The notes under the pieces were generated by a model that searched no databases, was not told the DNA's origin, and was given only the letters and a program-made list of their open reading frames with translations. From the NCBI GenBank assembly GCA_021325135.1, contig JAJPHT010000015.1, forward strand, positions 181,320 through 245,319: a DNA stretch of 64,000 nucleotides, given 5' to 3'. This DNA is from Pseudomonadota bacterium (GTDB taxonomy: Archaea; Thermoplasmatota; SW-10-69-26; JACQPN01; JAJPHT01). The position numbers and the translations under genes are program-made. Positions within the stretch are counted from its first letter, which is position 1. Every line of letters starts with the position of its first letter. Of the stretch, positions 4,713-47,483 are shown piece after piece.

Positions 4713-4848
4713 GGCCGCCGGAGGCGGTAACGGGGTTTGGGCTTTTCCGAGGGAGGGGCGTTCCCTCCTTGTCGGATGAAGACGGAAATCAGGGCCATCG
4801 GCTTCCGCCGGCCTTCGGGCCGTCGGGCCGATGGTCCTGGGAGAGCGC

Positions 4849-5394
4849 ATGAAAAGCGAGATCAGGACCATCGGCTTCGACGACGCCCCGTTCACGCGCC
4901 CCGACGGCCGCGTCCCCGTGGTGGGCGTCCACATGCGCGGCTCGACCCGCGTGGAGGGCATCCTGGCCACGGACGTGCTGCGCGACGGAGGCGACGCCAC
5001 GGCCCGCGTCGCGCGCTGCGTCGCCGGGTCGGGCCTGCGCGGCACCAAGGCGATCCTCCTGGACGGGGCCTCCTTCGCGGGGTTCAACGTCGTGGACCTC
5101 GACGGGCTGGCGGAGGAGACGGGCGTCCCCTGCATCGCGTTCACCAAGGGCGTGCCGGACTACGCGGCCATCCGCGCCGCGCTGGCCAACGTGCCCGACC
5201 CCGAGGCCAAGTGGGCGCTCATCGAGCGGCGCCGCACCGCGACGCTCCCCACGGCGACCTCGCCCATCACCGTCTCGTGGGCAGGGGATGTGGACCAGGC
5301 GCGCGTTGCGGAGATCCTTGCTCTCACGACGGCCCACGGCCTCGTGCCCGAGCCGCTGCGCGTGGCGCACCTCGTGGCCAGCGTCATGCGCTAG
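4849..5394 (+). CDS. DUF99 family protein (endonuclease V-like)
   Basis: IRTIGFDDAPF, DGGDAT, LLDGASFAGFNVVD, PEPLRVAHL. Confidence 0.9.
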   Translation: MKSEIRTIGFDDAPFTRPDGRVPVVGVHMRGSTRVEGILATDVLRDGGDATARVARCVAGSGLRGTKAILLDGASFAGFNVVDLDGLAEETGVPCIAFTKGVPDYAAIRAALANVPDPEAKWALIERRRTATLPTATSPITVSWAGDVDQARVAEILALTTAHGLVPEPLRVAHLVASVMR

Positions 5395-5977
5395 CGGGCG
5401 CCAGGGTGAGCGTGCCCTGCACCTTGAAGTCCACGCTGGAGAAGACCAGCGCGCCGCTGGGCGTCGGCGTGATGGCCAGGCTCCCGACGCTCAACGCGAT
5501 GGCGCCGTCGGCGGGCAGCGCCTTCAGGTCGACGTCCAGCGTCATGGGGCTGGGCGCCGACTTGTAATCATTGCACTGGAAGCTCGCGGCGTCCCCCTTC
5601 TTGCCGGTGCAGACCGAGGCGTAGAACGTCATGCCGGGCTGCTGCGCGCCGTACTCGATCTTCACGACGACGCGCCTGGGCACGCCCTTGGCGTCCACGA
5701 CGTGGAAGCTCTCGGAGCCCGTCTGGGAGAACTGGCACTGGTCCGCGGGCGTGCCGTAGGAGCAGGCCCCCGTGGGCGACGTGCCGCTGTACGAGATGGG
5801 GACGGGCGGCGGAGCCACGGGCGCCGTCTCGTTGGGCGTCGCGTTCGCCAGGGGCGCCGCGGCGGGCGAGAGGGTGGCGGTCTCCTTCGTCGCGGGCGTG
5901 GGCGTGGAGCCCCCGAGGCAGCCGGCGCCAAGGGATGCGGAGAGAAGGATGAGCGCGAGCAGCCGGGCCTGGATCAC
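5384..5977 (-). CDS. Hypothetical lipoprotein
   Basis: Hydrophobic leader ending GAGCLGG, T/P/A linker, beta-rich domain. Confidence 0.7.
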   Translation of the reverse strand: MIQARLLALILLSASLGAGCLGGSTPTPATKETATLSPAAAPLANATPNETAPVAPPPVPISYSGTSPTGACSYGTPADQCQFSQTGSESFHVVDAKGVPRRVVVKIEYGAQQPGMTFYASVCTGKKGDAASFQCNDYKSAPSPMTLDVDLKALPADGAIALSVGSLAITPTPSGALVFSSVDFKVQGTLTLAPASA

Positions 5978-6168
5978 GGGGTTCCCCGGCGGCGCGAGGC
6001 CAGGACGGGTCTTCACGTTTGTGGATGGGTCGTGCTCCGGCGATCGTCCGGCTGGGGGCGCCCGCCTGGCCGGATGAACAAAAGCCGAAAGTGATATCAC
6101 GATGGGGCCCGATCAAAGGGTGGCCGGGTCCACCCCCCCATCCCGTTTTTCCCGGCCTTTTCATGCCG

Positions 6169-7245
6169 TTACTTGATGGACGCCGCGAAGCCCGTCTCGC
6201 CCACGCGGCGCTTCAGCTCCACGATGACGTCCACGGGGGTGGGGTCCACGCTGCGCAGCGCGGCGAGGTAGACCGAGACGGCGTCCCCCGCGAGGCTGCT
6301 GGTGAGGAGGCGCTCGGGGAGCGTCTCGCCGCGGCTGTCGATCTGCACGACGCGCCCCCCCTTCTCCTGGATGAGGCGGCCGGTGAACGCGAAGCGCGCC
6401 TTGGCCTGCTCGTGCTCGCCCGCGTGGCGCAGGAAGACGGCGGTGAAGCGGTCGAGGTCCACGTCGCCGTCCCAGCCCACGAGCTCGTTGTGGTTCATCT
6501 CCGGCATGACGCCCCACCACGAGAGGACCTTGCCGTTCTCGTTGAGCTGGTTCGCGAAGCGGCGCGCGGCGGGGGCCAGGACGCCCGACGCGTAGACGGC
6601 CGCGACGCTCTCCTGGAGCGCGAGGGCGATGCGCTTGGCCTCGTTCTTGGCCGCGGGCACGTCGGGCGCCACCTCGACGACGGACTCGCGCAGCGTGCGC
6701 ACGGTCCTCTCCAGCGCGCGGCGCGTGGGCAGGACGCCCAGGTGGTCCAGGAGCGCGGCGCAGGTGCCGAAATTCGCGGGCAGCGCGGCGCGGGGCATCA
6801 TCTTCGCGCCCGAGATGCGCGCGAAGGGCGCGCCGTAGGACTTGGCGAGCTGCTCCAGGCGCGCGCCGGTGCTCACCGCGGCGAGCATGGCGCCCTGCTT
6901 GCGCGCCTGCGCGAAGGCGGCCAGCGTCTCCTCGGTGTTGCCGCTGTAGGAGACGGCCAGCACGAGCGTGTCCTTGTCGACCCAGCGCGGAAGCTCGTAG
7001 GCCCGGGAGACGAGCACGGGCGCCTTGCCCTCCTCGTCGGCCCACGCCGCGAGGTAGTCCCCGCTGATGGCGCTGCCGCCCATGCCCACGACGAGCACGC
7101 GCTGCGGCGCGCGGGGCAGGCTCCCCTCGAAGGTCTGCTGGAGCGCGGCGTCGAGCTGCTGGGGGTAGCTCAGCACGTGCCCCAGCATGTCCTCGCGGTC
7201 GGCCGCGCGCAGCGTCTCCTCGGGAATGTCCAGCATGTCGACCAT
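6169..7245 (-). CDS. Bifunctional phosphoglucose/phosphomannose isomerase
   Basis: GMGGSAISG, SYSGNTEET, PRAA, NENGK, PEMNHNEL, VDPTPV. Confidence 0.92.
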   Translation of the reverse strand: MVDMLDIPEETLRAADREDMLGHVLSYPQQLDAALQQTFEGSLPRAPQRVLVVGMGGSAISGDYLAAWADEEGKAPVLVSRAYELPRWVDKDTLVLAVSYSGNTEETLAAFAQARKQGAMLAAVSTGARLEQLAKSYGAPFARISGAKMMPRAALPANFGTCAALLDHLGVLPTRRALERTVRTLRESVVEVAPDVPAAKNEAKRIALALQESVAAVYASGVLAPAARRFANQLNENGKVLSWWGVMPEMNHNELVGWDGDVDLDRFTAVFLRHAGEHEQAKARFAFTGRLIQEKGGRVVQIDSRGETLPERLLTSSLAGDAVSVYLAALRSVDPTPVDVIVELKRRVGETGFAASIK

Positions 7246-7446
7246 CGGCCCCCACGCGGCGGCAAGGTCGTTAAGGTTTGGGGCTCGCGCCCCTTTCGGC
7301 GGGCCCTGCCGCGTCGCGCTATGCGCGCGCGGGCGCTGCGCAGCCCCGGCCCGCGGCGGGTCGGGAAGGCAGCACAGAGGCCCCGCCGCGGGCCGGCTCC
7401 AAAGGCTGATGCACGCCCAGTCCGTTGCGAGCGCGAGGCTGAACAC

Positions 7447-7659
7447 TTGCGCGTCCTCTTTGCTGCCCTGCTCGTGCTCGCGATCGCGACCTTCCTCGTG
7501 CCCCCGACGGCGCAGGCCACCGAGACGGTGACCGTCTGCTCCGAGTTCGAGCCCAACGGAGGCTGCGGCCTGGAGTACCTCTGCGTCAGCGCGTCGGGCG
7601 ACGTGAACCTGGGCCCCCGCTGCATCCGCGACCCCTGCACGAACCCCAACGTCTGCTGA
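7447..7659 (+). CDS. Secreted six-cysteine mini-protein (70 aa)
   Basis: TTG start, signal peptide ending AQA, mature C-x8-C-x5-C-x12-C-x4-C-x5-C. Confidence 0.7.
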   Translation: MRVLFAALLVLAIATFLVPPTAQATETVTVCSEFEPNGGCGLEYLCVSASGDVNLGPRCIRDPCTNPNVC

Positions 7660-7696
7660 GCAAGGCTCATGCCGGGGGGCCCGTCATGGGGCGGCG

Positions 7697-8344
7697 ATGC
7701 CCGGCCGCCTGACCCTCGGGCTCTACAACTCCTACGACCCGAGGCGCTTCCTGGAGGCCCACCGCCGCGCGCTGGTCCGCGCCGCGCCCCTGGCGCTGGC
7801 GTTCGACGCCAGCGTGGCGGCCTTCGGGTTCCCCTTCGCGGACCTCGCCGCGCACGGTGGGCGCACCTCGGAGAACCGCAGCCGCGGCTCCGAGGACAAG
7901 CGCGGCCAGGGGGAGCCCGTGGAGCTTCGCACGCCCGTGGAGATCGCCGAGTACGTCGCCGCGACGACCAGCGTGGCCGGCGCCAAGGGCGCGGAGGAGG
8001 GCGCCGAGCCCTTCGTCGCGCTGGCCCGCGCGGGGCGCTTCCACGTCTTCGACTTCCCCAAGAAGGGCTTCCCGCCGCAGCTTGGCGCGCTGGTCCTGGC
8101 CACCGAGCACGCGCAATGCCCCAAGGACACCAGCGCGCGGGCCATCGCGAGGGAGCTCGTGGACGGCCGCAGCCAGCTGGTCCTCTTCGGGCTCGGGCCC
8201 CACGGCACGCCTCCCGAGGTGCGCGAGGTCGCGCAGTGGGAGTTCGACGTGACCGGCGGCAACGTGGGGCTGGAGACCGCGACGGCCATGGGCGCCGTGG
8301 CCGCCGCCATCGCCGCGCACCGCGAGATGCTCCAACCCCGCTAG
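7697..8344 (+). CDS. DUF531 family protein (SPOUT-like)
   Basis: LTLGLYNSYD..EAHRRAL.RAAPLALAF; GLGPHG; LETATAMG. Confidence 0.85.
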   Translation: MPGRLTLGLYNSYDPRRFLEAHRRALVRAAPLALAFDASVAAFGFPFADLAAHGGRTSENRSRGSEDKRGQGEPVELRTPVEIAEYVAATTSVAGAKGAEEGAEPFVALARAGRFHVFDFPKKGFPPQLGALVLATEHAQCPKDTSARAIARELVDGRSQLVLFGLGPHGTPPEVREVAQWEFDVTGGNVGLETATAMGAVAAAIAAHREMLQPR

Positions 8345-8406
8345 AAGAGGGCCTGCGTAGGCGCGTGGCTTATCTACCCCCGAGAGGCGTTGGGCGCCGG
8401 GAGACC

Positions 8407-11400
8407 TTGGCTGCCCCCTCGTACACGGAGGCGCTCGCCCGCGGGTCCACGGAGGCCCTCCTGAGCGTCACGCCCAGCGGCCGGGTCCTGACGTGGAGCC
8501 ACGGCGCCGAGATGGCCTTCGGCTACCATCGCGACGAGGCCATCGGCCGGCTCCTCGTGGTCCTCGTGGCCTCCGCGGAGGACGTCGAGCGCGTGCAGGC
8601 GGCGCTGCGCCAGGCCGCGACGGAGGGCTCCGCGACCTGCGACGGGCTGCGCCGCCGCAAGGACGGCTCGCGCTTCGCGTCGCCCATGCCGGTGCGCATC
8701 GTCCGCGAGGGCGACGGGCCGGGCCTCCAGCTCACCGTCTACGTGGGCCGCGAGGCCTCGGGCGACCTTCTCTCGGACCCCGAGCCGGGCGCCGCCGAGG
8801 CGCCCCTGGCGCCGCTGGAGGACCCGCTGCGCGAGCCCCTGGAGCGCGTCCGGGCCGAGCTGCGCGCCGACGCCGCCGCGGTCTACGTCTTCGCGCCCAC
8901 CGGAGGGCTCGCCGTGCGCGCCACCGTGCGCGGCCCCGGCGCGCCAGCACCCCCCCTTCCCCGGCTCGAAGGCGAGGCGACCGCGCCCAGCCCCGCCGAG
9001 GCCTACCGCTCGCAGATCGCCGTCACCGTCCGCGTGGGCGGCGCGCCCGCGGGCGTGCTCCAGGTCGCCTCGCGCGAGGCCCGCGTCTTCACGCCCGACG
9101 ACGCCCGCGTCCTGGGCCTGGGCGCCGACCTCATCGGCTGGGCGCTGGAGCCGGGCCGCGGCCCCCTGGCCGGCATGGACCCCGCGATGGAGGCCGACCT
9201 TGCCGCGCTGCGAAGCGCGTGCGAGCGGGCGATGGAAGGCTCCCACGACCCCGGCGTCATGCTGGCCGCCATGGCGCGGGCTCTCGTGCCCCGCTTCGCG
9301 GACTGGTGCGCGGCCGACCTCGTGGAGCCCGCGGGCGGGCTGCGCCGCGTCGCGTTCGTCCACCGCGAGCCCTCCCGCGAGGCGACGGGCTACGAGGCCG
9401 CCTCGATCCCCGGCGCCAGCGCGCCGCTGGCCCCGCGGGACGCGGTGCGCGCGGCGCGCACCTTCGCGCGCCTCGCAGGCGAGGCCGAGCCCGAGCGCCG
9501 CCCCGAGGAGCGCCGCGCCCTGGCCGCGCTGGGCGACGCGTCGTGGATCGTCGTCCCCATCGCGGGGCGCGTGCGCGTCCTGGGCGCCCTGACCCTCGGG
9601 CAGGCCACCCCGGAGCGCGCCTTCGTGGACCGCGACGTGGCGTGGGTGCGCGACCTCGCGCGCCGCGCCGCGCTGGAGGTGGAGAACGCGCGCCTGCACG
9701 ACATGGTGCAGCGCTCCCGCGAGCAGGCGGGGCGCGCCACCGTGCGCGGCAAGCTCCTCCAGGAGGTCGCGGCCTCGCTCTCCGAGGCGCTCACCCCCAC
9801 CGAGGTCATCGAGACGGTGGTCGCGCGGGCGCGGGAGGGCCTGCGCGCCACGGGCGGCGCCCTCGCGGTGCTCACCGACGACCGCGCGGCCTTCGAGATC
9901 GCGGGCACGGTGGGCGCCGCCGACGCGCTGCACAACGCGTGGCGCCGCTTCCCCGTCCACACGCGCGTCCCGCTGGCGGACGCGGGCCGCTCCCGCGAGG
10001 TGGTGACCGTGGAGTCGGTCCCCGCCGGCATCGCGCGCTACCCCCACCTCGCGGGCGCCCACGAGAAGCTGGGCTCCCTCGTGGCCGTGCCCCTCGTCGT
10101 GGACGGCCGCACCGTGGGCGCCCTGGGCCTCGTCTTCGAGGAGAAGCGCGCCTTCGACGCGGACGACCTCTCCTTCCTGCGCACGCTGGCGCGCCAGTGC
10201 GGCGACGCCGTCGAGCGCACGCGCCTGCTCAACGCGGAGCGCAGCGCCCGCGCCGCGGCCGACAGCGAGGCGCGCCGCGCGGCGTTCCTCGCGGACGCCA
10301 GCCGCATCCTCTCCGCCTCCTTCGACTTCGAGAGCACGCTGGGCCAGACGGGCCGCATGCTCGTGCCGGTCTACGCGGACTGGTGCCTCATCCACCTGGC
10401 GGAGCCCGACGGCTCGCTGCGCGCCCTCGTCTCGGTCCACGGCGAGGGCGCGAAGCTCGCGGCCGTGGAGGAGCTTCGCTGGCTGCATCGCCTCGACCCC
10501 AACGGCGAGGCCGGCATCCCGCGCGTCGTGCGCACGGGGCGCCCCGAGATCCACTTCGAGGTGCCCGACTCGCTGGTGGAGCGCATGTGCGCGAGCCCCG
10601 AGGAGGCCGCGCTCATGCGCAAGGTGGGCGTCCGCTCGCAGATGATCGTGCCCATGGTCGCGCGCGGCCGCGTGCTGGGCGCCATCACGTTCCGCCAGTC
10701 GGGCATCCGCCGCTTCGGCATCAACGACGTGCCCCTCGCGGAGGAGCTGGCCATCCGCGCCGCCATCGCGGTGGACAACGCGCGCCTCTTCCGCGAGTCG
10801 CAGGAGGCGTTCCTGCGCCGCGAGGAGAGCCTGGCGCTCCTGGCGACGCTCCTCTCCAGCGCGCCCATCGGCATCGCGTTCTTCGACCGCGAGATGCGCG
10901 TCGCGCGCGTGAACGACGCGCTGAGGGCCGCCGGCGCGCCCGCCGACGCCGTGGGCCTCACGCTCGCCGAGGCGCTCCCCTTCCTCTCCGAGGAGACGCG
11001 GGAGCGCTTCCGCCAGGTCCTCGTCACGGGCGAGCCCGTCGTGGACCTGGAGGTGGCGGAGGCCTCCGACGGCCTCTTCCCGCGCCACTGGCTCGCGTCG
11101 TGCTATCCCGTGACGGCGCGCCCCGGCGACACGCTGGGCGTCGGCCTGCTCCTGGCGGACATCACCGCGCGCAAGCGGGCCGAGGAGGCCCTGCGGGAGA
11201 GCGAAGAACGATATCGCCTCCTCGTCGAGGGCGTCAAGGACCACGCCATCCTCAGCCTCGACCCCGAGGGGCGCATCATGAGCTGGAACGCGGCCGCGGA
11301 GAGGCTCCACGGCTACAAGGCGGAGGAGGTCGTGGGCAAGCCCTTCAGCGTCTTCCACCCCCCCGAGCTGGAGGGCGCCGCGGCCGTGGAGGAGCTTGCG

Positions 11401-13069: not shown

Positions 13070-13081
13070 GGTGCCCGCCCC

Positions 13082-16217: not shown

Positions 16218-16440
16218 GGCCCGCTCGCTTCGCTCGCGGACCGACTCGGCTGGGGGCCCTTCGGGCCCCCGGGGAGCGCCCCTTTTTTCGCAGAAATGCC
16301 CTTAGGGGCGCTCCGGCGCCGCCTTCGGCGGCGCCTGCGGCCCCTACAAGGCATCCGGCATTTCTGCGAAAAAACGGGCGCTCGGTGATGGCCCTCTGCG
16401 GGGGGCCGCGAGTGGTGGGCTCTTCGTCGCGCGCGCGGGC
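16218..16440. repeat. Nested palindromic intergenic element
   Basis: 26/27-bp inverted repeat 16274-16300 / 16357-16383 plus CTTCGG-capped hairpins. Confidence 0.75.
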
Positions 16441-16506: not shown

Positions 16507-16824
16507 ATGTTCTGTCCCAACGACAAGGCGATGCTCAAGCCTGTGAACGGGGTGCTGACGTGCCCGAAATGCGGGTACACGAAGCAGGCCGTCGCGGGGC
16601 AGAACGTCGTGCGGAGCAAGGCCGTCGAGGACGTCCACAAGTCGGTCATGGACGACTCGGCGCAGAAGGTCAGCCTCCTGCCCACGACCAACGAGTACCA
16701 GTGCGAGAAGTGCGGCAACCACCTCGCGTACTACTACATGCGCCAGACGCGCAGCGCGGATGAGGCCACGACGCGCTTCCTGGAGTGCACCAAGTGTGGC
16801 CACAAGTGGAGGGAATACCGGTGA
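16507..16824 (+). CDS. tfs: Transcription factor S (TFS/RpoM)
   Basis: Two Zn ribbons and QTRSADE acidic hairpin, ends CTKCGHKWREY. Confidence 0.93.
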   Translation: MFCPNDKAMLKPVNGVLTCPKCGYTKQAVAGQNVVRSKAVEDVHKSVMDDSAQKVSLLPTTNEYQCEKCGNHLAYYYMRQTRSADEATTRFLECTKCGHKWREYR

Positions 16825-16876
16825 GCGAAGCGAACCGGTTTCCCTACACTGAAGCCGGACCGCAGTCCGGCTGGAA

Positions 16877-17314
16877 GTGGAGGGAATACCGATAGCGTCG
16901 CCCGAGCTTCGCCTCGCGGGGTCGGTGCTCCACCTTCCGGACACCGCGGGCGTCTTCGTGATCGCGTGCCGCTTCATGGGGACCACCGCGCATCCCTTGG
17001 GCGCCGTGCTCTACGTGGGGGTCGCGGAGGACATGCGGCGCCGCGTGCTCTCGCTCCTCTCCGGGGGCAAGTCGGGGCTCCACGCGCCGCTGCGCGAGCT
17101 GCACGAGGCCGGCGGCCAGGTGGACGTCCTCTACGTCGAGGTCAAGGGCGCGGGGAAGATGCCCGGGCTGGAGGCCGCCCTCGTGCAGGAGCACATGCAC
17201 CGCTCCGGGACGAAGCCTGCGTGGAACCGCGGGCCCGCCCGCACGAAGCCCTCCCCCGAAGCCTTGGCGACGGCGGAGCACATCCTGGACGCGCTGCGCA
17301 TCCTGCCGCGCTGA
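16877..17314 (+). CDS. GIY-YIG-like nuclease domain protein
   Basis: GVFVI...LYVG.AEDMRRRV...LEAALV...PAWN. Confidence 0.6.
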   Translation: MEGIPIASPELRLAGSVLHLPDTAGVFVIACRFMGTTAHPLGAVLYVGVAEDMRRRVLSLLSGGKSGLHAPLRELHEAGGQVDVLYVEVKGAGKMPGLEAALVQEHMHRSGTKPAWNRGPARTKPSPEALATAEHILDALRILPR

Positions 17315-18652: not shown

Positions 18653-18785
18653 GGGGGACTCCGTCCCCCAAACCCCCACAACACCCGAATCTCCGAATCA
18701 GCGCCGCGACAAACACTCGTGGGTGGTTTTCTCCTCGGTGATTCCGAGATTCGGGTCTCGCGGGGGTCTGGGGGCGGAGCCCCCA
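18652..18785. repeat. Palindromic element with GGGGGCGGAGCCCCCA arms
   Basis: Outer arms TGGGGGACTCCGTCCCCCAAACCCCC / GGGGGTCTGGGGGCGGAGCCCCCA; inner 17/18-bp IR 18683-18700 / 18739-18756. Confidence 0.75.
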
Positions 18786-28871: not shown

Positions 28872-30003
28872 CCGCGACTATCCCCTCGCGCAGGTGCGCT
28901 ACCGCTGCGAGTGCGGCGGCCTCCTGGAGGTCGAGGCGGACTGGCGCTGGCGCCCCACGGAGGCGCGCGGCCTGTGGCGATATCGTTCCCTCCTCCCCAC
29001 GCTGGACGAGGCGCCGCCCGTCACGCTCCAGGAGGGGGGAACGCCCCTCGTGAGGTGCGAGCGCCTCGCGGCGTGGGCCGGCGTGCGCGAGCTGAGCGTC
29101 AAGGTCGAGGGCGCGAACCCCACGGGCTCCTTCAAGGACCGCGGCATGACGGTGGGCGTCACCCTCGCGCGCAGCCTCGGCATGAAGGCCCTCGCGTGCG
29201 CGAGCACGGGCAACACCAGCGCGTCCCTCGCAGCGTATGGCGCGCGGGCCGGGCTCCCCGTGAGCGTCCTCGTCCCCGCGGGCAAGATCGCGGCCGGCAA
29301 GATGGCGCAGGCCCTCGCCTTCGGCGCCAAGGTGATCGAGGTGGAGGGCGGCTTCGACGAGGCCATGTCCCTGGTGGAGCAGCTTTCCGCCGACGGCCAC
29401 GTCTACCTCCTGAACTCCCTCAACCCGCTGCGCCTTGAAGGGCAGAAGACGCTCCTCTTCGAGGTGCTGGAGGCGGCCTCGCCCGACCGCGTCGTCTTCC
29501 CCGTGGGCAACGGCGGCAACGTCAGCGCCGCGCACAAGGCCATCCGCGAGGCCAACGCCACGGGCCTCTCCCGCGCGACGCCCATGCTCACCGGCGTCCA
29601 GGCCGAGGGCGCGGCGCCCCTCGCCTCCGGAAGCTATCACCCTGTGGACAAGGCCGAGACGCTGGCCACCGCCATCCGCATCGGGCGCCCGGTCAACGCC
29701 GACAAGGCCCTGCGCGCCGTGAAGGAGACGGGCGGCGCGTTCGCCAAGGTCAGCGACGCGGAGATCTTCGACGCGCAGCGCCGCCTCGCGCGGGAGGAGG
29801 GGCTCTTCGTCGAGCCCGCCAGCGCGGCGCCCCTTGCGGGCCTTCGCAGGCTCGTGGAGTCCGGCGTCGTGGACCGCTCCGAGAGCGTGGTGCTCGTCGC
29901 GACGGGGAACGGCATGAAGGACCCCGACGTGGTGTCGCGCTACGCGTCCCCTCCGTTGCGGACGAAGGCCGATCTTCCCTCTCTTCTGAAGGTGCTATCG
30001 TGA
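28846..30003 (+). CDS. thrC: Threonine synthase (CTG start inferred)
   Basis: NPTGSFKDRG, ASTGNTSAS, PVGNGGN, EPASAA; N-terminal CIRC..CECG ribbon needs a start at CTG 28846. Confidence 0.93.
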   Translation: MRFRCIRCDRDYPLAQVRYRCECGGLLEVEADWRWRPTEARGLWRYRSLLPTLDEAPPVTLQEGGTPLVRCERLAAWAGVRELSVKVEGANPTGSFKDRGMTVGVTLARSLGMKALACASTGNTSASLAAYGARAGLPVSVLVPAGKIAAGKMAQALAFGAKVIEVEGGFDEAMSLVEQLSADGHVYLLNSLNPLRLEGQKTLLFEVLEAASPDRVVFPVGNGGNVSAAHKAIREANATGLSRATPMLTGVQAEGAAPLASGSYHPVDKAETLATAIRIGRPVNADKALRAVKETGGAFAKVSDAEIFDAQRRLAREEGLFVEPASAAPLAGLRRLVESGVVDRSESVVLVATGNGMKDPDVVSRYASPPLRTKADLPSLLKVLS

Positions 30004-30010
30004 TCGACAA

Positions 30011-30110
30011 GGGTCCAAAGAACGCGACGAGCGCCACGAGCGCAAAGGACGCGACGACGGGAAACATCGCGACCTTGGCGCTCTTCGCGCTCGTCGCGTT
30101 CTTTGGACCC
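30011..30110. repeat. Long palindrome with 9-nt periodicity between thrC and the ACT gene
   Basis: Perfect 24-bp IR 30011-30034 / 30087-30110 plus imperfect inner stem. Confidence 0.85.
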
Positions 30111-30133
30111 CTGGCCAGGGAGGTGACGTTCAG

Positions 30134-30631
30134 GTGAAGCTCGACATCCTCGTGGAACTCCGGGACTCTCCAGGCCAGCTCAGCCAGGCCCTCGCCACCG
30201 TGAGCCGCTTCGGAGGCAACGTCATCAGCGTCCTCCACGAGCACGGCAAGCGTCGCGGCGACTGGGTCCCCGTGCGCATCGTGCTGGAGATCCCCAAGGA
30301 GGGGGAGGAGCCGCTGGTCAACGCGCTCAAGGCCGAAAGCCGCGTCGTCTCCGTGGGCGGCGCCAGCGCGACGATCCCCTTCGCGTTCCTCCTCCTGGGG
30401 CACGTCTTCGAGTCGCACGTGCAGGAGATCACCGACGCCGTCTTCGCCGCGGGCGCCGAGGTGCGCCGCTTCAGCGCGGAGATCGCGAGCCGCGAGGCGC
30501 CCAGCGCGGCCCTGGTGGAGATCGCGGCGGGCAACGCCGAGACGCTCCAGGCCGCCCGCGAGCGCGTGCAGGAGATGGCGCGCGCCAAGGGGCTTCTCAT
30601 GATCGAGGCCCTGGGGGGCGCTCCCGAATGA
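30134..30631 (+). CDS. ACT-domain regulatory protein associated with homoserine dehydrogenase
   Basis: ELRDSPGQL..GGNVISVLH, LLGHVFES; GGAGGTGA SD. Confidence 0.85.
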   Translation: MKLDILVELRDSPGQLSQALATVSRFGGNVISVLHEHGKRRGDWVPVRIVLEIPKEGEEPLVNALKAESRVVSVGGASATIPFAFLLLGHVFESHVQEITDAVFAAGAEVRRFSAEIASREAPSAALVEIAAGNAETLQAARERVQEMARAKGLLMIEALGGAPE

Positions 30632-30716
30632 GCCGCATCCTGCTCGCTTCGGCCGAAGCCTCTCCTCGCGGCCTTGCGGCCGCTCGTCGGGATCGGCCTC
30701 GCTCGGAGGATGCGTC

Positions 30717-31703
30717 ATGAGCCGCATCCTCCTCGCTGGGCACGGCAACGTGGGGAAGGCGTTCCATGAGCTTCTCCTGGAGGAGGCCCCGCGCCTCGCG
30801 GCCCTCCTGGGCGAGGCGCCCAAGGTGGTGGGCGTGCTGCGCCGCAGCGGCGCGTGGCTCGACGAGAACGGCGTCGGCGTGGGCGCCACGCTGCTCTCGC
30901 GGCGGCAATCGCTCTCCGTCGTGGACGCGCTGGACAAGGTGCGGCCCGACGTCTTCGTGGAGCTGACCACCAGCAACCTCCAGACGGGCGAGCCGGGCGC
31001 TTCCTACATCCGCGCGGCGCTGGAGCGCGGCATCCCCGTCGTCACGGCCAACAAGGGGCCCCTCCTGCGCCACTACGAGAGCCTCACCACGCTGGCGAAG
31101 AGGAAGGGCGTGCCGCTGCGCTTCGAAGGCACGGTGGCAGGCTCGATCCCCACGCTCAACCTCCACGAGTTCACCCTGGTCGGGAACCCGGTCACGCGCT
31201 TCGACGGCATCCTCAACGGCACGTCGAACTACATCCTCACGCGCATGGCCGAGGAGGGGCTCGCCTTCGCGGACGCGCTCAAGGAGGCGCAGGAGCTTGG
31301 CTACGCCGAGGCGGACCCCACGAGCGACGTGGGCGGCCACGACGCGGCGGCGAAGCTCGTCATCCTCGCCAACCACGTCCTGGGCGTGCCCCTGTCGTTC
31401 GAGGACGTTCAGCGCGAGGGGATCGAGCGCATCAGCGCGGCCGCCATCCGCCTCGCCGCCAAGGAGGGCTACGCCATCCGGCTCATCGCGACCGCGGACG
31501 CCGCCACGCGGCAGGCCAGCGTCGCGCCGCGCCTCGTGCCCGTGGACTCCTCCCTCAACGTGCGCGGCAGCCTCAACGTCGTGCGCTTCGCCACCGCGCA
31601 CGCGGGCTCGTTCACCATCAGCGGCAAGGGCGCGGGCGGCCGGGAGACGGCCACGGCGGTCCTCAGCGACGTCATCCACGTCCTGCGGGGGCGAACGACC
31701 TAG
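30717..31703 (+). CDS. hom: Homoserine dehydrogenase
   Basis: GHGNVG, VVTANKGP, GILNGTSNYIL, AEADPTSDV, GKGAGGRETA. Confidence 0.95.
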   Translation: MSRILLAGHGNVGKAFHELLLEEAPRLAALLGEAPKVVGVLRRSGAWLDENGVGVGATLLSRRQSLSVVDALDKVRPDVFVELTTSNLQTGEPGASYIRAALERGIPVVTANKGPLLRHYESLTTLAKRKGVPLRFEGTVAGSIPTLNLHEFTLVGNPVTRFDGILNGTSNYILTRMAEEGLAFADALKEAQELGYAEADPTSDVGGHDAAAKLVILANHVLGVPLSFEDVQREGIERISAAAIRLAAKEGYAIRLIATADAATRQASVAPRLVPVDSSLNVRGSLNVVRFATAHAGSFTISGKGAGGRETATAVLSDVIHVLRGRTT

Positions 31704-38999: not shown

Positions 39000-39022
39000 G
39001 ATATCATTCCTGGGTTGCGGTC

Positions 39023-40718: not shown

Positions 40719-40853
40719 GATTTGATCCGGACCTCGCTCTCAATGGGTATAGGATTGGACCGTGCGTCCAACACCCTATCCTCAAGCTTTATAAGCGGAC
40801 TCGCCGCGTCAACCCTGCCCGAAGCGCGGAGGCAACGCCAGTTGGACAGCAGG

Positions 40854-41507
40854 ATGGTGAAGGCCGCAGCCGCAGCCGCCCTGGGGATCGTCCTTCTTCT
40901 GCCCACGTTCAACGCGCTGAACAACTCCTACGTCCAGAACGTGCCCCCGCCCCCGTGGGTCCCGACGCCCAGCACGATCCCGGACATCACGCCCCCCTCC
41001 GACTTCAAGCCCCCGCCGGACTTCAAGCCGCCCCCGGACTTCGACGCCTCGAAGTACAAGGGGCAGATCCCTCCGGGTGGCTGCCCTCCGCCCATCATCC
41101 AGGTGATCAAGGAGGCGACGTTCAACGACAGCATCACGCAGTCCAGCAACGGGCTGCTCCCCATCGGGAACCCCACCTCGTACGACCTGGCGAGGGACTT
41201 CTCCCCGCCCAACGGCACCTACGCGATCATCGGGTTCGTCAATCTGACCCAGTGGGAGGGCACCAACTTCACGGCCACGGTGCACCAGCCCGGCGGTGGC
41301 TCGTGGAGCGGCTACGGCAACAACACCATGAGCCCGCCCCGCCAGGAAGACGAGTCCATCCTCTACAACTCCTACGAGGCCCTCGGGCACAAGCCCGCGC
41401 CCTCGGGGCAGTACACGCTCACGCTCCACGCGGACGCGCCCTTCGTGCAGGGCGACATCCGCAGCACGTTCTACTCCATCATCCCCTGCGGAGGACTCCT
41501 CAAGTGA
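40854..41507 (+). CDS. Secreted/membrane-anchored protein with Pro-rich PPDFK repeats
   Basis: N-terminal hydrophobic segment; first gene of the MoxR operon. Confidence 0.7.
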   Translation: MVKAAAAAALGIVLLLPTFNALNNSYVQNVPPPPWVPTPSTIPDITPPSDFKPPPDFKPPPDFDASKYKGQIPPGGCPPPIIQVIKEATFNDSITQSSNGLLPIGNPTSYDLARDFSPPNGTYAIIGFVNLTQWEGTNFTATVHQPGGGSWSGYGNNTMSPPRQEDESILYNSYEALGHKPAPSGQYTLTLHADAPFVQGDIRSTFYSIIPCGGLLK

Positions 41508-42403
41508 TGCGCCTCGTCCTGAAGCCTGCCGGCGTGAAAGCCCTGTGGATCGGAGGCGGCGCCCTCGTGGGGCTCGCCGTGGGGGCGCTTATCGCGAACT
41601 TCGACGCGGCCGTGGGGCTCGCGCCGATCTGGCTGCTCCTCTGCGTGGCCTACGCGGGCGGCATCGGCTTCTTCCTGCGCGAGAAGGACGCGGCGCCCCG
41701 CGAGGCGGCCCGCGCCGCGGCGCCCGCCCCCGCGCCGGTCCGAGCCTCCGCGCGCCCCGCCCCCGCGCCGCTGCCGCGCGGCAACGGCCTCTCGGTCCTT
41801 CTCGACCTGCCCGACGTGCCCGAGGGCTTCCCCACGGTCATCGGCGAGCGCGAGACGGTGCGCGTCGTCGTCTCCGTCCAGACCGTCTCCGGCCCCGCGA
41901 CCGGCGCCGCGGTGCGCCTCGCCAGCGCGCCCCGCGACGGCGCGCGTGCCCTGGCGGGCGAGGGCGTCACGGGCGCGGACGGCACCGTCGCGTTCACGCT
42001 CCACGCTCCCGGAGTCGGCGAGCTTCTCCTCGACGCCGAGGCGAGCCTCGAAGGGCTCACGGGCTTCGCCAGCGCGACGGCCAGCGTCGTGCGCTACGAG
42101 GAGGAGATCGCGCGCCTCTTCGGCGAGTTCCGCTCCTTCGCCATCGGCCTGCTGGGCCCCGACGCCGAGGCGTGCACCGCCCGCGAATTGGCCGAGCGCC
42201 TGCGCGTGGGCTCCGACGCCGCCTCCGCGCGCGCCCTGCTGGAGCTGGCGCGCATCTACGAGCTTGTCGCCTACGGCGAGCGCGAGGCGGACCGCCGCCT
42301 CTACCTGGCGCTCATGCAGCAGCTCCTCGTGCTGGAGCGCGCCGACCTGCCGCAAGCGGGCGGCTCCCCGGGCGCCTCGCCCCCCGCGCTGACGGAGGTC
42401 TGA
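41507..42403 (+). CDS. Membrane protein with Ig-like and DUF4129-like C-terminal domain
   Basis: Two TMs; TARELAERL..LARIYELVAYG; TGATG coupling. Confidence 0.65.
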   Translation: MRLVLKPAGVKALWIGGGALVGLAVGALIANFDAAVGLAPIWLLLCVAYAGGIGFFLREKDAAPREAARAAAPAPAPVRASARPAPAPLPRGNGLSVLLDLPDVPEGFPTVIGERETVRVVVSVQTVSGPATGAAVRLASAPRDGARALAGEGVTGADGTVAFTLHAPGVGELLLDAEASLEGLTGFASATASVVRYEEEIARLFGEFRSFAIGLLGPDAEACTARELAERLRVGSDAASARALLELARIYELVAYGEREADRRLYLALMQQLLVLERADLPQAGGSPGASPPALTEV

Positions 42404-42406
42404 GCG

Positions 42407-43279
42407 CTGCTCGAGCCCCTGGTCCCTCCGCGTGCCGGCCGCATGCTCAACCTCGCGGGCGCGGGCCTCTCCGCGTTCGCGTTCCTGCTCTCCACCACCG
42501 TGACCACGGTGAGCGGCGTCATCCCCGTCACCATCCTCGCGCCGCTCCTCGTCGTCGCCTTCGGCCTGCGCGTCGCGGGCATCAGCCACGCCCTCTCCAA
42601 CGGGCGCGCCGTCATGGCGTGGTCGCCGCGCGTCGCGTCGTGGGTCTTCTTCGGCGCCGCCGCGCTCCTCCTGGGCCTCTCGGGTTCGAAGTACGTCGTG
42701 GCCCTCTTCGCCGCGTTCCTCGTGCTGGACTTCGCCGCGGGCTGGACCAAGCGCGACCTGGACGAGAAGGGCGCGAAGGAGCGCAAGGCGTTTCCCTACC
42801 GGAAGGCGCTTCTCGTGGCGGCCGCCATCGGCTACGCCGCGCTGGTCGCCGCGTTCCAGATCCTCTACGCGCGATATCTTTCCTACGGCGAGCTGATCAC
42901 GTGGGCGCTCATCGGCGCGGGCTTCGCCGTCGCGCTGCGCCTCTGGCTCGCGGGGCCCAAGGCCGGCGACGCGTGGCTCTTCGCGCCGCGCGACCACCGG
43001 CGCCACGAGCGCCGCGAGGCCCGCGTCCTGGACCCCAAGCGCGTGCGCGCCGAGGCGGTCCTCGACGCCTTCCGCGCCCGAGGCGACGCCGCGCCCTTCC
43101 TCCAGTTCGTCCGCGACTCCGCCACCGCCGCCGACCTCGCCGAGGAGGACGTGCGCGCGCTGGAGTCGCGCATCCTCGCGTCCATCGCCCGCGCCGGCAC
43201 CAACCGCGACGCGGACGCGCGCGCCGCCCTCGACGAGGTCGAGCGCATCCTCTCCCTTCGACGCTCCCAGGAGTTCTGA
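42407..43279 (+). CDS. Multi-TM hypothetical protein (CTG 42407 or ATG 42443 start)
   Basis: About 6 TM segments; GGAGGT 7 nt before CTG. Confidence 0.7.
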   Translation: MLEPLVPPRAGRMLNLAGAGLSAFAFLLSTTVTTVSGVIPVTILAPLLVVAFGLRVAGISHALSNGRAVMAWSPRVASWVFFGAAALLLGLSGSKYVVALFAAFLVLDFAAGWTKRDLDEKGAKERKAFPYRKALLVAAAIGYAALVAAFQILYARYLSYGELITWALIGAGFAVALRLWLAGPKAGDAWLFAPRDHRRHERREARVLDPKRVRAEAVLDAFRARGDAAPFLQFVRDSATAADLAEEDVRALESRILASIARAGTNRDADARAALDEVERILSLRRSQEF

Positions 43280-43281
43280 CC

Positions 43282-44292
43282 ATGAAGACCGACGACTACC
43301 TCGAGGCCTCGCACGCGGTGTACAAGGACGAGGTCAACAGCCTGCAATCGCTCATCCGCGGCGTGGGCCGCAGCATCGTGGGCAAGGACGTCGTCGTGGA
43401 GAAGCTCATCGCGGGCGCGCTCGCCGGCGGCCACGTCCTCATGGAGGACTACCCGGGCCTGGGGAAGACGCTCCTCGTGAAGACCTTCGCGCGCAGCGTG
43501 AGCGCGGACTTCAAGCGCGTGCAGTTCACGCCCGACATCCTGCCTTCCGACATCCTGGGCACGAAGATCTGGAACCAGGAGACGCGCCAGTTCCAGCTCT
43601 ACAAGGGCCCCATCTTCACCAACATCCTGCTGGCCGACGAGATCAACCGCGCGCCGCCCAAGACGCAGAGCGCGCTCCTGGAGGCGATGGAGGAGCGGCA
43701 GGTCACCATCGACGGCGAGACGCACAAGCTCCCGCGCCCCTTCTTCGTGCTGGCCACGCAGAACCCCGTCGAGCAGGAGGGCACGTATCCCCTGCCCGAG
43801 GCGCAGATGGACCGTTTCCTCATCCGCCTGAGCATGGGCTACCCCGCGACGGACGAGGAGGAGGCCGCCATCCTCCAGCGCCGCGCCGGCTGGGCCAAGG
43901 ACGACCCCACCGGGGACTACAAGCCCGTCATGGACCTCCAGCAGTTCGACGCCCTGCGGCAGCGCGTGGAGAACGGCGTCATCGTCAGCAGCGACGTCAT
44001 GCTCTACATCGGCCGCGTCGTGCGCGCCGTCCGCGCCCACCACCAGGTGCGCGTCGGGCCCAGCCCGCGCGGCTCGCTGGCCCTCTTCAAGCTCAGCAAG
44101 GCGCTCGCCCTCCTGCGCGGCCGTGACTTCGTCGTTCCCGACGACGTGAAGACGTTCGCCGTCGACGCCCTCGCGCACCGCACGCTGCTGAAGGTGGAGG
44201 ACCTGCTGGCGGGCGGCTCGCCCGAGAAGGCCGTGCGCGAGGCCATGGCGACCGTCCCCGTCCCCGCCGCGAAGCCGCGCCGGCTCTCGTGA
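43282..44292 (+). CDS. moxR: MoxR family AAA+ ATPase
   Basis: PGLGKT, RVQFTPDILPSD, LADEINRAPPKTQSALLEAM, TQNP, SPRG. Confidence 0.95.
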   Translation: MKTDDYLEASHAVYKDEVNSLQSLIRGVGRSIVGKDVVVEKLIAGALAGGHVLMEDYPGLGKTLLVKTFARSVSADFKRVQFTPDILPSDILGTKIWNQETRQFQLYKGPIFTNILLADEINRAPPKTQSALLEAMEERQVTIDGETHKLPRPFFVLATQNPVEQEGTYPLPEAQMDRFLIRLSMGYPATDEEEAAILQRRAGWAKDDPTGDYKPVMDLQQFDALRQRVENGVIVSSDVMLYIGRVVRAVRAHHQVRVGPSPRGSLALFKLSKALALLRGRDFVVPDDVKTFAVDALAHRTLLKVEDLLAGGSPEKAVREAMATVPVPAAKPRRLS

Positions 44293-44301
44293 GGATCCAT
44301 C

Positions 44302-45615
44302 ATGGCCCGGCCGAAAGAGAGGACCGAGGATGACGCCAAGGGCCTGGCGCCCTTCGGCCGCGCGCTCGCCACCGCGGGCGCCGCCATGCTCACCCTCGGC
44401 CTCGCCTTCGGCGACTACCCGTACCTCATCATCGCCGTGATGCTCCTGGGCCTCTGCTACTGGGCGCGCGGCCACGCGGTGCCCGGCCTCTCCGCCACGC
44501 GCACGCTCTCCCGCCGCGAGGTCCGCGCGGGCGACACGGTGGACGTCTCGGTGGAGGTGCGCAACGAGGGCGCGCAGCCCGTGGGCCTCTCGCTCCACGA
44601 CAAGGCCCCCGACGCGTTCTCCCTGGAGGCAGGGGGCAACTTCGGCGCCGGGTGGCTCGCCCCCGGCCAGCGCGCCACGCTGCGCTACCGCCTTCGCCCG
44701 CCGCGCCGCGGCACGCACCCCGTGGGCGCGCTGCGCGCCACGGCCTACGATCCGCTCTTCCTCCAGAGCGCGCCCGTCTCCGAGGCCGCGCCTGCGGACG
44801 ACGTCACGGTCCACCCGCGCACGCCGCCCGCGCCGCGCATCCGCACCAGCGCCGCGTGGGGCCGCACGCTCCTGCCCGGAGGCGACAAGGCGTCGCGCGG
44901 CATCCTGACCAACGACTTCCGCGAGCTTCGCCCCTACGCGCGCGGCGATCCCCTCAAGAGCGTCAACTGGAAGGCCACGGCCCGCGAGAGCCGCGAGGAC
45001 CTGAGGCTCATCGTCAACGACTACGAGGTCGAGGGCAAGAAGGTCGTCTGGCTCTTCGTCGACGCAAGCCCCTACACCGTGGGCGGCACGAACCTCGGCA
45101 GCGTGTTCGACGAGATCGCCAGCGGCGCGCTCGCCGTGGCGGGGCACTACCTGGACATGGGCCACCGCGTGGGCTTCACGCTCTTCGGCGCGGGCCAGAC
45201 GCGCATCCTCTACGCCGAAGGCGGCGACGCGCAGGAGCGGCGCATGGCGGCCCTCCTCGCCACCGCGATGCCCGGCGAGCCGGGCGAGGACGTGCAGCGC
45301 GCCGTCGAGGCCGCCAAGGGCTTCCTCGCCCGCGAGAAGCCCCTCGTCTTCGTCTTCACGCTCCCCGGCCGCGACCCGGGCCTCGCCAAGGCGCTCCTCT
45401 CCGCGCGCGCCCTCGCCAGCACCGGCCGCCGCCCCGCGCCCGTCGTGTGCGTGACGCCCATCCTCCCCGGCGACGGCAGCACCGCCGCGCGCATCGTGGC
45501 CATCGAGGAGAAGGCGCAGCTGAAGGGGCTGGAGCGGCGCGGCATCACCGTCATCCGCTATCACCCGCAGCGCGCGCCGCTCCAGGCGCTCCTCGCCAAG
45601 GGGGTGCTCCGCTGA
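44302..45615 (+). CDS. DUF58 domain protein
   Basis: FRELRPYARGDPLKSVNWKATAR, LFVDAS. Confidence 0.9.
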   Translation: MARPKERTEDDAKGLAPFGRALATAGAAMLTLGLAFGDYPYLIIAVMLLGLCYWARGHAVPGLSATRTLSRREVRAGDTVDVSVEVRNEGAQPVGLSLHDKAPDAFSLEAGGNFGAGWLAPGQRATLRYRLRPPRRGTHPVGALRATAYDPLFLQSAPVSEAAPADDVTVHPRTPPAPRIRTSAAWGRTLLPGGDKASRGILTNDFRELRPYARGDPLKSVNWKATARESREDLRLIVNDYEVEGKKVVWLFVDASPYTVGGTNLGSVFDEIASGALAVAGHYLDMGHRVGFTLFGAGQTRILYAEGGDAQERRMAALLATAMPGEPGEDVQRAVEAAKGFLAREKPLVFVFTLPGRDPGLAKALLSARALASTGRRPAPVVCVTPILPGDGSTAARIVAIEEKAQLKGLERRGITVIRYHPQRAPLQALLAKGVLR

Positions 45616-46301
45616 GCACGGGCATCGGCTTCGTGGACGAGAAGATCGACGCGCTGCGCGCGCTCCCGCCCGGAAGCCTCGCCCGCCGCGCGCTCTACGC
45701 CTTCCTCGTGGGCCTGGGCGTCACGCTCACGGGCTATGGCAGCATGTTCGTCAAGGACACGCCCGCCATCCCCTACAAGCTCATCCCCGACCTGCGCGGC
45801 GCGCTCTTCCTCCTCAGCGGCACGACGCTGGGCCTCTATGCGGCCTACGGCCGGTCGAGCCACCGCACGTGGGCGCTCTGGGGCGTCCTCGCGTTCGTCA
45901 TCGGCTTCCACCTGGAGGAGGCGACGGTCCACTGGATCGGCCCTTTCCCAGGCAGCATCACGGGCATCCGCGTCGGCCTCCTGGGCACCGCGGGCTCGCT
46001 CCTCGCCATCGCCGCCGTCGTGCTCCTCCACGTCGAGGTCGAGTCGTCGCGCCTCGCGCAGGACCTCGACAAGCGCGGCGCCGGAAGGGACTCGGGGCTC
46101 GCCGTCGCGGAGGGCCTGCGCGGCGAAGGCGCGCGCCGCGTCGTCGCCGTCGCCGCAGGCGCCGCCGGGCTCGGGCTCCTCGCCATCGTGTCGGAGAAGA
46201 TCATCGGCAACGGCGCGACGGGCGGCGTCTACGTTCTGTTCCTCGGGAGCGCCATCCTCTTCGGGCTCGCGTTCGCCTTGGTCCGGTTCGGGCGCCGCTG
46301 A
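45612..46301 (+). CDS. Multi-TM hypothetical protein (CTG start inferred)
   Basis: About 6 TM segments; CTGA overlap with the DUF58 stop; next GTG at 45633. Confidence 0.65.
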   Translation: MSTGIGFVDEKIDALRALPPGSLARRALYAFLVGLGVTLTGYGSMFVKDTPAIPYKLIPDLRGALFLLSGTTLGLYAAYGRSSHRTWALWGVLAFVIGFHLEEATVHWIGPFPGSITGIRVGLLGTAGSLLAIAAVVLLHVEVESSRLAQDLDKRGAGRDSGLAVAEGLRGEGARRVVAVAAGAAGLGLLAIVSEKIIGNGATGGVYVLFLGSAILFGLAFALVRFGRR

Positions 46302-46304
46302 AGC

Positions 46305-46418
46305 CCAAACGCGGGGGGATTCGGGGGGCGGAAGCCCCCTGACGTGAAGGAAAAGTCCGGCAGACGATCAAAACGTCAGGGGGCTGCGCTCCCTGAAACC
46401 CCCGCTTTTGGCGCCGCC
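46305..46418. repeat. Palindromic REP/MITE-like element, copy 2 (reverse orientation)
   Basis: CCCCCTGACGT-core-ACGTCAGGGGG filling the gap between two convergent stops. Confidence 0.85.
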
Positions 46419-47366
46419 TCACCCTCTCATGTCCAGCGCCTTCCGGACCTCCCCCGCGATCGCAAGGGAAAGGGGCGGCGGCACGCTCTCGCCGATCATG
46501 TTCATCTGCTCGTTCTTGGAGCCGTGGAACACGAAGTCGTCGGGGTAGCCCATGAGGCGCGCGTGCTCGCGGGCCGTGAGGAGGCGGTCCTCCACGGGGT
46601 GGATGAAGCGGCCCAGCCCCTTCACGGTGGGCGCCAGCTCGTCGGCCTTGAGGCGCGTGAAGGCGCCGTGCATGCGGCCGTCCGCGGCCCGGTAGCGGTA
46701 GAGGCTGTCGCCCTCCTCCATCTCGCGCATGCGCTGGCCGCGCTTGCCTCGCATGGGGACCTCCTCGTGGTTGGGGATCTCCACGTCGAGGCTCTGGAGG
46801 TCCGCGATGGCCTCCTCCACCGTGACGCGGCGCGCGACCTTGGGTGGTGATATCACCACGTTGGAGATGAAGACGCGGTCGCGGTGGCTGGGCGTGCCGT
46901 GGTCCTCCGCCTGGAGGCGGTTGAAGTGGATGGAGGGGTAGCCCTGCCGCGCGAAGATGGTGCGAAGCTCGGCCTCCAGCGGGCCCTCCATGATGGGGGG
47001 CACATTCTCCATGACGAAGACGCGCGGCTGCAGCTCCTTCACGACTTTGGCGTACTGGAGCGTCAGGCTCCCCACGGGGTCGGTGTAGAGGCGGTCCAGG
47101 GGGTTGCGGCGGCGGTCGGCGTTGGCCACGGTGAACGCCTCGCAGGGCGGGCCGCCGATGAGCACGTCGGGCCGGCCCATCTTCGCGTACTCCTGCGTCC
47201 GGACGTCGCCCAGGTGCGGCTCGCCCACGGGCACGTTGGCGACGTAGGTCTCCAGCGACGTGCGGAACGACTCGACGGCGTGCCCAATGCGGAAGCCGCG
47301 CTCGGCGAAGCCGAACCCGAAGCCGCCGCAGCCGGCGAAGATGTCAACAACATTCGGCGCGTCCAT
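46419..47366 (-). CDS. Orphan DNA (cytosine-5)-methyltransferase
   Basis: Motif I DIFAGCGG, IV GGPPC, VI ENV, VIII RDRVF, IX/X REHARLMGYPD..GESVPP. Confidence 0.9.
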   Translation of the reverse strand: MDAPNVVDIFAGCGGFGFGFAERGFRIGHAVESFRTSLETYVANVPVGEPHLGDVRTQEYAKMGRPDVLIGGPPCEAFTVANADRRRNPLDRLYTDPVGSLTLQYAKVVKELQPRVFVMENVPPIMEGPLEAELRTIFARQGYPSIHFNRLQAEDHGTPSHRDRVFISNVVISPPKVARRVTVEEAIADLQSLDVEIPNHEEVPMRGKRGQRMREMEEGDSLYRYRAADGRMHGAFTRLKADELAPTVKGLGRFIHPVEDRLLTAREHARLMGYPDDFVFHGSKNEQMNMIGESVPPPLSLAIAGEVRKALDMRG

Positions 47367-47483
47367 CAGGACCACCCGAATGTTGTTGAGAGGCCGGGCT
47401 GGCGACCGAAGGGAGCCAGTGCGGCTGAATCCACGACCGTGGGCGCGTCCACGGGCGCGCGAGGAGGGTCTTCCTACAAAGCC

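Follow-up and report, generated by a model that had tools for sequence, protein, structure and literature searches.

Non-coding hairpin elements that duplicate gene ends in a lineage of uncultured Thermoplasmata

Introduction

Yeasts, fungal mitochondria, and prophages all provide examples of selfish elements that replace the end of the gene they enter, and each such element has an enzyme and a target of its own. Prophages e14 and 21 in icd of Escherichia coli, and likewise the islands at tRNA gene ends, restore the interrupted gene with a substitute end; they need an integrase and a fixed attachment site and are far larger than the elements described here. Repetitive extragenic palindromic (REP) sequences, REPINs and BIMEs with their REP-associated tyrosine transposase (RAYT), and miniature inverted-repeat transposable elements (MITEs) such as Correia and ERIC, are short, non-coding, palindromic, intergenic, polymorphic, and co-transcribed, and their target duplications are absent or measure 2–10 bp. 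The WHO homing elements of Torulaspora and Lachancea bring a replacement gene end and push the old end behind themselves (PMC7282813). Here, we describe small hairpin cassettes at duplicated gene ends in a 64,000-nucleotide stretch of archaeal DNA (the window; contig JAJPHT010000015.1 of GenBank assembly GCA_021325135.1, or G000:C15:181320-245319 in our numbering of genomes, G; contigs, C; and loci, L).

Results

Four genes of the window, coding for a DUF99 (Endo_dU) protein, tfs, hom, and a C5 methylase (all names checked with Pfam), carry their first or last codons twice. The direct repeats listed in an initial annotation of the sequence were all recovered, with offsets of 73 (DUF99, 4776/4849), 71 (tfs), 89 (hom), and 86 bp (methylase), and each of the four gaps holds an inverted copy of the same terminus (Table 1). 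This arm pairs better with the copy that serves the gene (the working copy) than with the other (the displaced copy). The arm duplex energies for working and displaced copy were −30.2/−29.6 (DUF99), −22.8/−18.5 (tfs), −24.8/−20.2 (hom), and −22.9/−7.6 kcal/mol (methylase), an advantage for the working copy of 0.6 to 15 kcal/mol in 4/4 cassettes. The fold z scores were −4.1, −3.8, −1.8, and −4.4, in the same order. A mini open reading frame (mini-ORF) of 24, 30, or 28 codons overlaps the neighboring stop or start at tfs, hom, and the methylase (minus strand), respectively. There is none at DUF99, where the upstream neighbor is divergent, so that no coupling has to be kept. A comparison of the window and 16 cassette loci with Rfam matched only two tRNAs, and thus no known structured RNA family for the cassettes.

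G000 is a metagenome-assembled genome (3.77 Mb, 71.6% GC), for which the sequencing run that matched best is a soil metagenome, and its bin, 94% complete and 5.6% contaminated, could raise the suspicion that the cassettes are assembly artifacts. This is next to impossible. Contigs of an independent run cover the hom cassette with zero differences, it is also present in a relative with 89% identity, and the tfs cassette is also present in G002, which refutes the suspicion for both; moreover, the two copies of a terminus differ at synonymous sites. The check for chimeras, which the initial annotation had called for, thus showed the cassettes to be real. One contig from what is probably the source run extends across the methylase cassette. 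In run X3, a contig departs from the reference at 47355, beside this cassette, which is no evidence for an empty allele.

Genome-wide, each gene's terminus was compared with its own flank, using permuted flanks as the control. Duplications of 3′-ends numbered 14 at a score of at least 28 bits, compared with 0.4 in permuted pairs, and 24 compared with 2.2 at 24 bits; for 5′-ends, four were observed and 0.4 expected, two of the four being true cassettes. Counted by eye, about 25 cassette sites exist in G000, at 3′-ends, 5′-ends, and tRNA ends. The predicted further cases thus exist in number, and four within one window, a region of core genes, are therefore a local excess.

The cassettes are also not unrelated to one another, as had been assumed: a core is clearly common to tfs, hom, and the methylase, and weakly so to DUF99. 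The core of this family P measures 48 nt and occurs in seven copies in G000, one of them within the hom insert. Shorter forms with the same six-base borders are found at tfs, the methylase, aRF1, and other genes, with DUF99 fitting loosely. The order of parts is fixed (gene body, working terminus, loop, inverted arm, core, displaced copy), read on the coding strand for 3′ targets and on the opposite strand for 5′ targets, and in all family P cases the core directly adjoins the arm on one side and the displaced copy on the other, with exact borders. A scan with this pattern returned nine strong triads from 2397 cores, compared with 0/2308 in the wrong polarity and 0–1 in each of six control motifs, although the pattern was derived from some of the scanned cases and the scan is, thus, partly circular. 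No exact pattern match to the family P core was found in other genomes or metagenomes; a short variant is present at hom in L141. A second family, Q (15 copies), has a different core and duplicates 30–140 bp at many copies; it has no inverted arm, which therefore is not the constant part it had been taken for.

Empty orthologous sites, proposed as a check in the initial annotation, were found in relatives. All family Q copies found in G002 (6/6) carry terminal duplications (three at gene ends, three at starts), and 6/6 of these sites are empty in G000. The DUF99 cassette is missing at its site in G001–G003, G007, and L144, and which element occupies the end of a proteasome-type ATPase gene or of a GTPase gene differs between species. 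The target duplications vary between 19 and 143 bp, and the inserts between 70 and 190 bp. The cassettes are, in sum, mobile elements, lineage-wide and gene-less. Of the earlier view that they reflect a repeated process copying its target rather than one mobile sequence, the first part stands; the second does not, as there are two shared cores, P and Q, polymorphic between species.

Three loci of relatives differ in form from the simple cassette. In G002 (L061:1330-1700), the first ∼25 bases of a family Q element restart after the displaced copy, which suggests stacked insertions. In G004 (L097:1380-1660), the duplication of the ribosomal protein S10 gene end exceeds 100 bp, and its displaced copy contains a hairpin element. 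Also in G004 (L036), 143 bp of the DUF99 start plus 30 bp upstream of it are duplicated at an offset of 236 with one synonymous difference, and the displaced DUF99 frame terminates on the working start.

Across 28 copy pairs, 57 codons differ synonymously and 19 non-synonymously (neutral share 0.24), and changed bases are distributed over the codon positions as 64:12:10 (third position, 64/86); three of the 28 rows were mis-framed, a bias that works against the synonymous excess. The annotated predominance of synonymous differences is, thus, corroborated. Divergence within pairs ranges from identical to about 40% of codons changed. The notion that the working copy is always the new one received no support: at synonymous sites, outgroups agreed with the working copy 21 times and with the displaced copy 15 times (P 0.41), favoring neither. 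The A/T skew favors the working copy (34:16), and a foreign working end combined with a native displaced end holds for the methylase and three others and is reversed in others. Displaced copies also carry derived synonymous changes. As the changes in both copies are of the synonymous kind, both copies would have changed under protein-level selection and may both once have been working ends, as in the WHO elements and the mobile ORFs of fungi. Such a pattern would arise because, in the WHO model, each homing event installs the donor's end, and the end that served the recipient until then comes to lie behind the element.

The copies might instead have drifted without any homing, if resident REP-like hairpins inserted first and template switching or flap fold-back then produced a small inverted triplication. 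We regard this as possible, but rather unlikely. The layout of copy, inverted copy, and copy is that of inverted triplications at Okazaki-fragment ends when FEN1 fails (PMC13334657), and template switching evens inverted arms (PMC8604942); G000 is rich in hairpin repeats, with several dispersed families, and young cases with identical copies exist. However, a copy no longer in use would be expected to accumulate changes at every codon position, which is at odds with both the third-position bias and the derived synonymous changes in displaced copies. Neither the fixed polarity, with duplications beginning right at the core end, nor the duplication of 30–140 bp by family Q in the absence of an inverted arm is expected from replication accidents.

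Translational coupling in archaea requires overlaps or very short gaps, and in Haloferax, reinitiation is nearly lost across gaps of ∼20 nt (PMC10666635). Unless it relays the ribosome, an insert that splits a coupled pair is therefore costly. At the junction between the ACT-domain gene and hom, direct coupling is seen at four loci, and another six contain an insert, with five independent inserts among them. Irrespective of the insert, all filled loci (6/6) contain a frame of 24–43 codons with a four-base overlap with both the upstream stop and the hom start, and in L141 the frame of the hom mini-ORF is preserved through indels of 6 and 24 nt. That five independent inserts are all doubly coupled points to selection for translational coupling, as had been proposed from the window. 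The bridging frame was kept in 6/6 unselected cases, for which the probability by frame alone is about (1/3)^6; these comprise four ACT/hom inserts found by orthology, an insert at transketolase (G002) that was assessed outside the scripted junction test, and one family Q site. The tfs junction is mixed. Where the cassette is absent, tfs and a gene for a GIY-YIG-like protein overlap, the end of the former with the start of the latter. In the filled site, this start is retained in the displaced copy, and the overlap is restored by the mini-ORF, which has 29 codons in G002, its frame being preserved across a 15-nt indel. The proposed preference for offsets of 2 mod 3 was confirmed at gene starts only (6/8, P 0.02); at 3′-ends such offsets are depleted (2/20, P 0.018), which rules out a general rule.

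The peptide and the length of the mini-ORF are not conserved. Because five unrelated inserts at one junction show it, and the frame alone is kept, the mini-ORF is better read as a survivor's repair that lets the insertion persist than as an evolved peptide or a dedicated switch. That the cassettes were fixed by a benefit to the host, their alternative hairpins and mini-ORF tying translation to the upstream ribosome, is accordingly improbable. Such a switch would be in keeping with the Shine-Dalgarno-like run of hom, which is located within the arm and base-paired whichever way the region folds, and with the retention of the hom cassette across species at 89% identity; the pairing would deepen the dependence on the relay. 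Yet the majority of cassettes, located at 3′-ends or tRNA ends, have no coupled ORF, direct coupling in relatives already makes hom depend on the upstream ribosome, and unrelated inserts do the same job with neither peptide nor length in common.

Other inserts and repeats were also observed. Outside the scope of the initial annotation, a 130-nt hairpin insert of another family lies between thrC and the ACT gene (Table 1). Its site is empty and directly coupled in G002, G003, G006, and G007, and a second copy at C3:44897 is likewise bridged. At C40:81987 of G000, the bridging frame of a duplicated start ends on CTG in place of the usual start, which suggests reinitiation at a rare start codon. 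The 2.6-kb contig C28 (L079) of G000 carries a second, cassette-free tfs gene with a degenerate GIY-YIG-like neighbor and is likely DNA of a related strain or species within the bin. Three REP-like dyads, each of two inverted hairpin units 25–28 nt apart, are present in the window (671-760, 46315-46403, and 53552-53636) and belong to a family common genome-wide; no RAYT was found in nine genomes of the archaeal family. Long intergenic inverted repeats at 16263-16394 and 18665-18774 belong to other families. A degenerate 34-nt repeat, 106 bp apart, begins in a tRNA 3′-end (56347-56486), and a small hairpin stands immediately behind the second tRNA (63430-63455); both are probably older tRNA-end insertions.

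Table 1. Positions of the cassette parts and adjoining features in the window.
Feature	Position	Strand	Evidence
Displaced DUF99 (Endo_dU) start, 10 codons	4776..4805	+	Repeat and pairing comparison
DUF99 inner hairpin, weak relative of the shared core	4806..4827	.	Fold; least similar row of the core alignment
Inverted copy of DUF99 start region	4828..4839	-	Fold, pairing
Working DUF99 start, offset 73, without bridging ORF	4849..4878	+	Pfam, gene calls, pairing
Working tfs end, last 6 codons and stop	16804..16824	+	Repeat, Pfam
tfs bridging mini-ORF, 24 codons	16821..16895	+	Comparison with G002
Inverted copy of tfs end	16835..16850	-	Fold, pairing
Shared core hairpin, short form (tfs)	16852..16873	+	Core scan, core alignment
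Displaced tfs end, includes start of next gene	16875..16895	+	Empty junctions on C28, L138, L139
GIY-YIG-like nuclease gene, neighbor coupled to tfs, not cassette cargo	16877..17314	+	Also present at empty sites
Hairpin insert of another family between thrC and ACT gene, 130 nt; 45-codon bridging ORF, doubly coupled	30000..30137	+	Not part of the initial annotation
Displaced hom start, −4 overlap with stop of ACT-domain gene	30628..30648	+	Repeat
hom mini-ORF of 30 codons, bridging with a −4 overlap on either side	30628..30720	+	Junction comparison
Family P core at hom	30650..30699	-	Seven genomic copies
Inverted copy of hom start, holds Shine-Dalgarno-like run of working start	30699..30714	-	Fold, pairing
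Working hom start	30717..30737	+	Pfam
Working C5 methylase start, A/T-rich synonymous codons	47344..47366	-	Repeat, pairing
Methylase mini-ORF, 28 codons, −1 overlap with working start at its end	47366..47452	-	Comparison with G002
Inverted copy, complementary 14/14 to working methylase start	47376..47389	+	Fold, pairing
Shared core hairpin, medium form (methylase)	47391..47427	+	Core scan, core alignment
Displaced methylase start, resembles the start at the G002 empty site	47429..47452	-	Comparison with G002

Discussion

With moderate confidence, we favor the view that non-coding selfish hairpin elements insert at gene termini and, by duplicating the end of the gene, keep it intact. It is based on the shared cores, their fixed orientation, the target-derived repeats, the filled and empty sites, the synonymous-only divergence, and the keeping of frame at coupled junctions. 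On arrival, the core would be inserted from a nick, with a long target duplication. In family P, fold-back copying may then write the inverted arm, which later palindrome correction would keep matched to the working copy. Spread among alleles would resemble homing by gene conversion, the donor end replacing the gene end and the recipient's end being pushed behind the core, presumably with a nuclease acting in trans. At coupled junctions, the survivors would be those versions in which the ribosome, on reaching the upstream stop, is passed along a short open frame to the start of the downstream gene.

The arm could, in principle, do more than this. It might be a DNA guide that pairs the single-stranded donor with the recipient gene end and thereby places the core, as the nuclease binding site, at the cut, so that one enzyme in trans would serve any target. 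The exact borders of arm, core, and displaced copy in all family P cases would suit such self-guided homing, as would the behavior of Ssn nucleases, whose cleavage of single-stranded DNA takes place next to a hairpin, is restricted to one orientation, and occurs even with a two-molecule stem (PMC11893778). Its probability is nevertheless low: the arm matches the working copy better, whereas a guide directed at empty alleles should show the opposite preference; an arm is missing from family Q; and no Ssn-type gene was identified. The boldest version of the selfish-element view, a protein-less, retargetable homing element, is unlikely as well. There, a constant core and an arm copied from the target end would guide a trans-acting single-strand nuclease that keeps rewriting both the initial and the terminal codons of numerous housekeeping genes, along with tRNA ends, while throw-away mini-ORFs keep up the hand-over of ribosomes.

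Several observations weigh against the view that selfish elements are at work. The filled/empty polymorphism seen is one between species rather than within one population, and the gene starts were taken from a simple gene caller of our own. Hairpin-bearing gaps with both overlap signals were in frame in 13/18 cases compared with 6.0 expected (P about 0.001; plain gaps, 17/43 compared with 14.7), but at a hairpin threshold that was chosen afterwards. An unfiltered genome-wide bridging test with a frame-shift control, confounded by mis-called starts, gave no excess (29 compared with 31 and 17), and the thrC/ACT spacer in G001 is unbridged. The search for a mobilizing enzyme was likewise negative. 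No Y1/RAYT transposase was found in nine genomes of the archaeal family (72–100% complete), and neither a reverse transcriptase nor a DUF559 gene in G000. No gene framed by a terminal duplication was found at 200–3000 bp. Small nuclease genes detected in relatives (see below) have neither hairpin ends nor duplicated tails.

The latter genes encode DUF559 or GIY-YIG proteins, are atypical in composition, and lie directly behind housekeeping genes (L120:1440-1830, L136:1400-1900, and L137, in G001, G004, and G002, respectively); they are possibly mobile nuclease genes. The gene behind tfs has a GIY-YIG-like fold according to an Atlas search and was considered as an autonomous partner, a role rejected because its coupling to tfs also exists where the cassette is absent; only three other relatives of it were found. 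Ssn/SRM systems are marked by a single-domain cd10448 GIY-YIG gene with the hairpin repeats on its flanks; the GIY-YIG genes of G000 are UvrC and one small, unflanked gene only, for which NCBIfam gave no family. By analogy, an Ssn-type nuclease would suit the polarity of the elements, which we mention as a lead only.

If gene-less elements replace ends at dozens of targets, and at both ends of genes, they would shape the termini of archaeal core genes in a way so far unrecognized, and would also give rise to false small ORFs and wrongly called starts. A natural experiment is provided by the ACT/hom junction, where five independent insertions rebuilt the overlap at both ends. It is comparative evidence for selection on termination-reinitiation in uncultured Thermoplasmata, which can apparently be relayed through an arbitrary short frame.

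How do the elements compare with what has been described? A literature search retrieved no paper on such elements or bridging ORFs, most subscription journals being outside its reach. Many short intergenic palindromes with a shared core, as in REP/REPIN systems, are found here; in contrast to REP sequences and MITEs, however, the archaeal elements duplicate 20–140 bp of coding sequence, and the nine genomes of the family contain no Y1 transposase. Terminal inverted repeats with a short, fixed target duplication, which define MITEs, were not observed, the duplications being variable (19–143 bp). The elements are, thus, neither a REP/RAYT system nor a classic MITE. Small inverted triplications also consist of copy, inverted copy, and copy with a short spacer and are removable by slippage (PMC13334657), a layout present in family P and at the four window sites, but not in family Q. 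They arise as random errors of replication, share no foreign core, and show no preference for gene ends (PMC13334657), and their junctions consist of local sequence only, whereas one junction here is a core common to unrelated loci. The NTS/SRM hairpin repeats of Ssn nucleases resemble the elements in being many, small, and oriented, with one-sided action and, as is likely here, a small nuclease in trans; NTS are, however, not reported to duplicate gene ends and are described in bacteria (PMC11893778), and no Ssn gene was identified here.

The closest likeness is to homing elements that replace gene ends. Mobile ORFs of fungal mitochondria are flanked by a duplicated gene tail whose copies differ mainly synonymously, but they encode LAGLIDADG or GIY-YIG enzymes, measure about 1 kb, occur at 3′-ends only, and have neither a hairpin core common to their targets nor a bridging ORF (PMC3630166). 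WHO elements share the replacement end, the displaced old end, a downstream fragment as the recombination site, and stacked events; they carry their own endonuclease gene, have mainly one target (FBA1), and replace about 400 bp (PMC7282813). The archaeal elements agree with both in that the gene is whole, with a second copy of its end behind the element, and in that the copies differ mainly synonymously. Unlike WHO elements, they are gene-less, have dozens of targets at both gene ends and at tRNAs, involve 20–140 bp, and often contain an inverted copy; an endonuclease gene inside the element is absent from the inserts of 70–190 bp, and no framed ORF was seen at 200–3000 bp. They thus act like WHO elements and mobile ORFs but, because they have no enzyme gene, are not members of either group. 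What the present case adds is the copy–arm–core–copy anatomy with fixed polarity, two families that act at both ends of genes and at tRNAs within a single genus, and a bridge that arose five times independently at the same junction.

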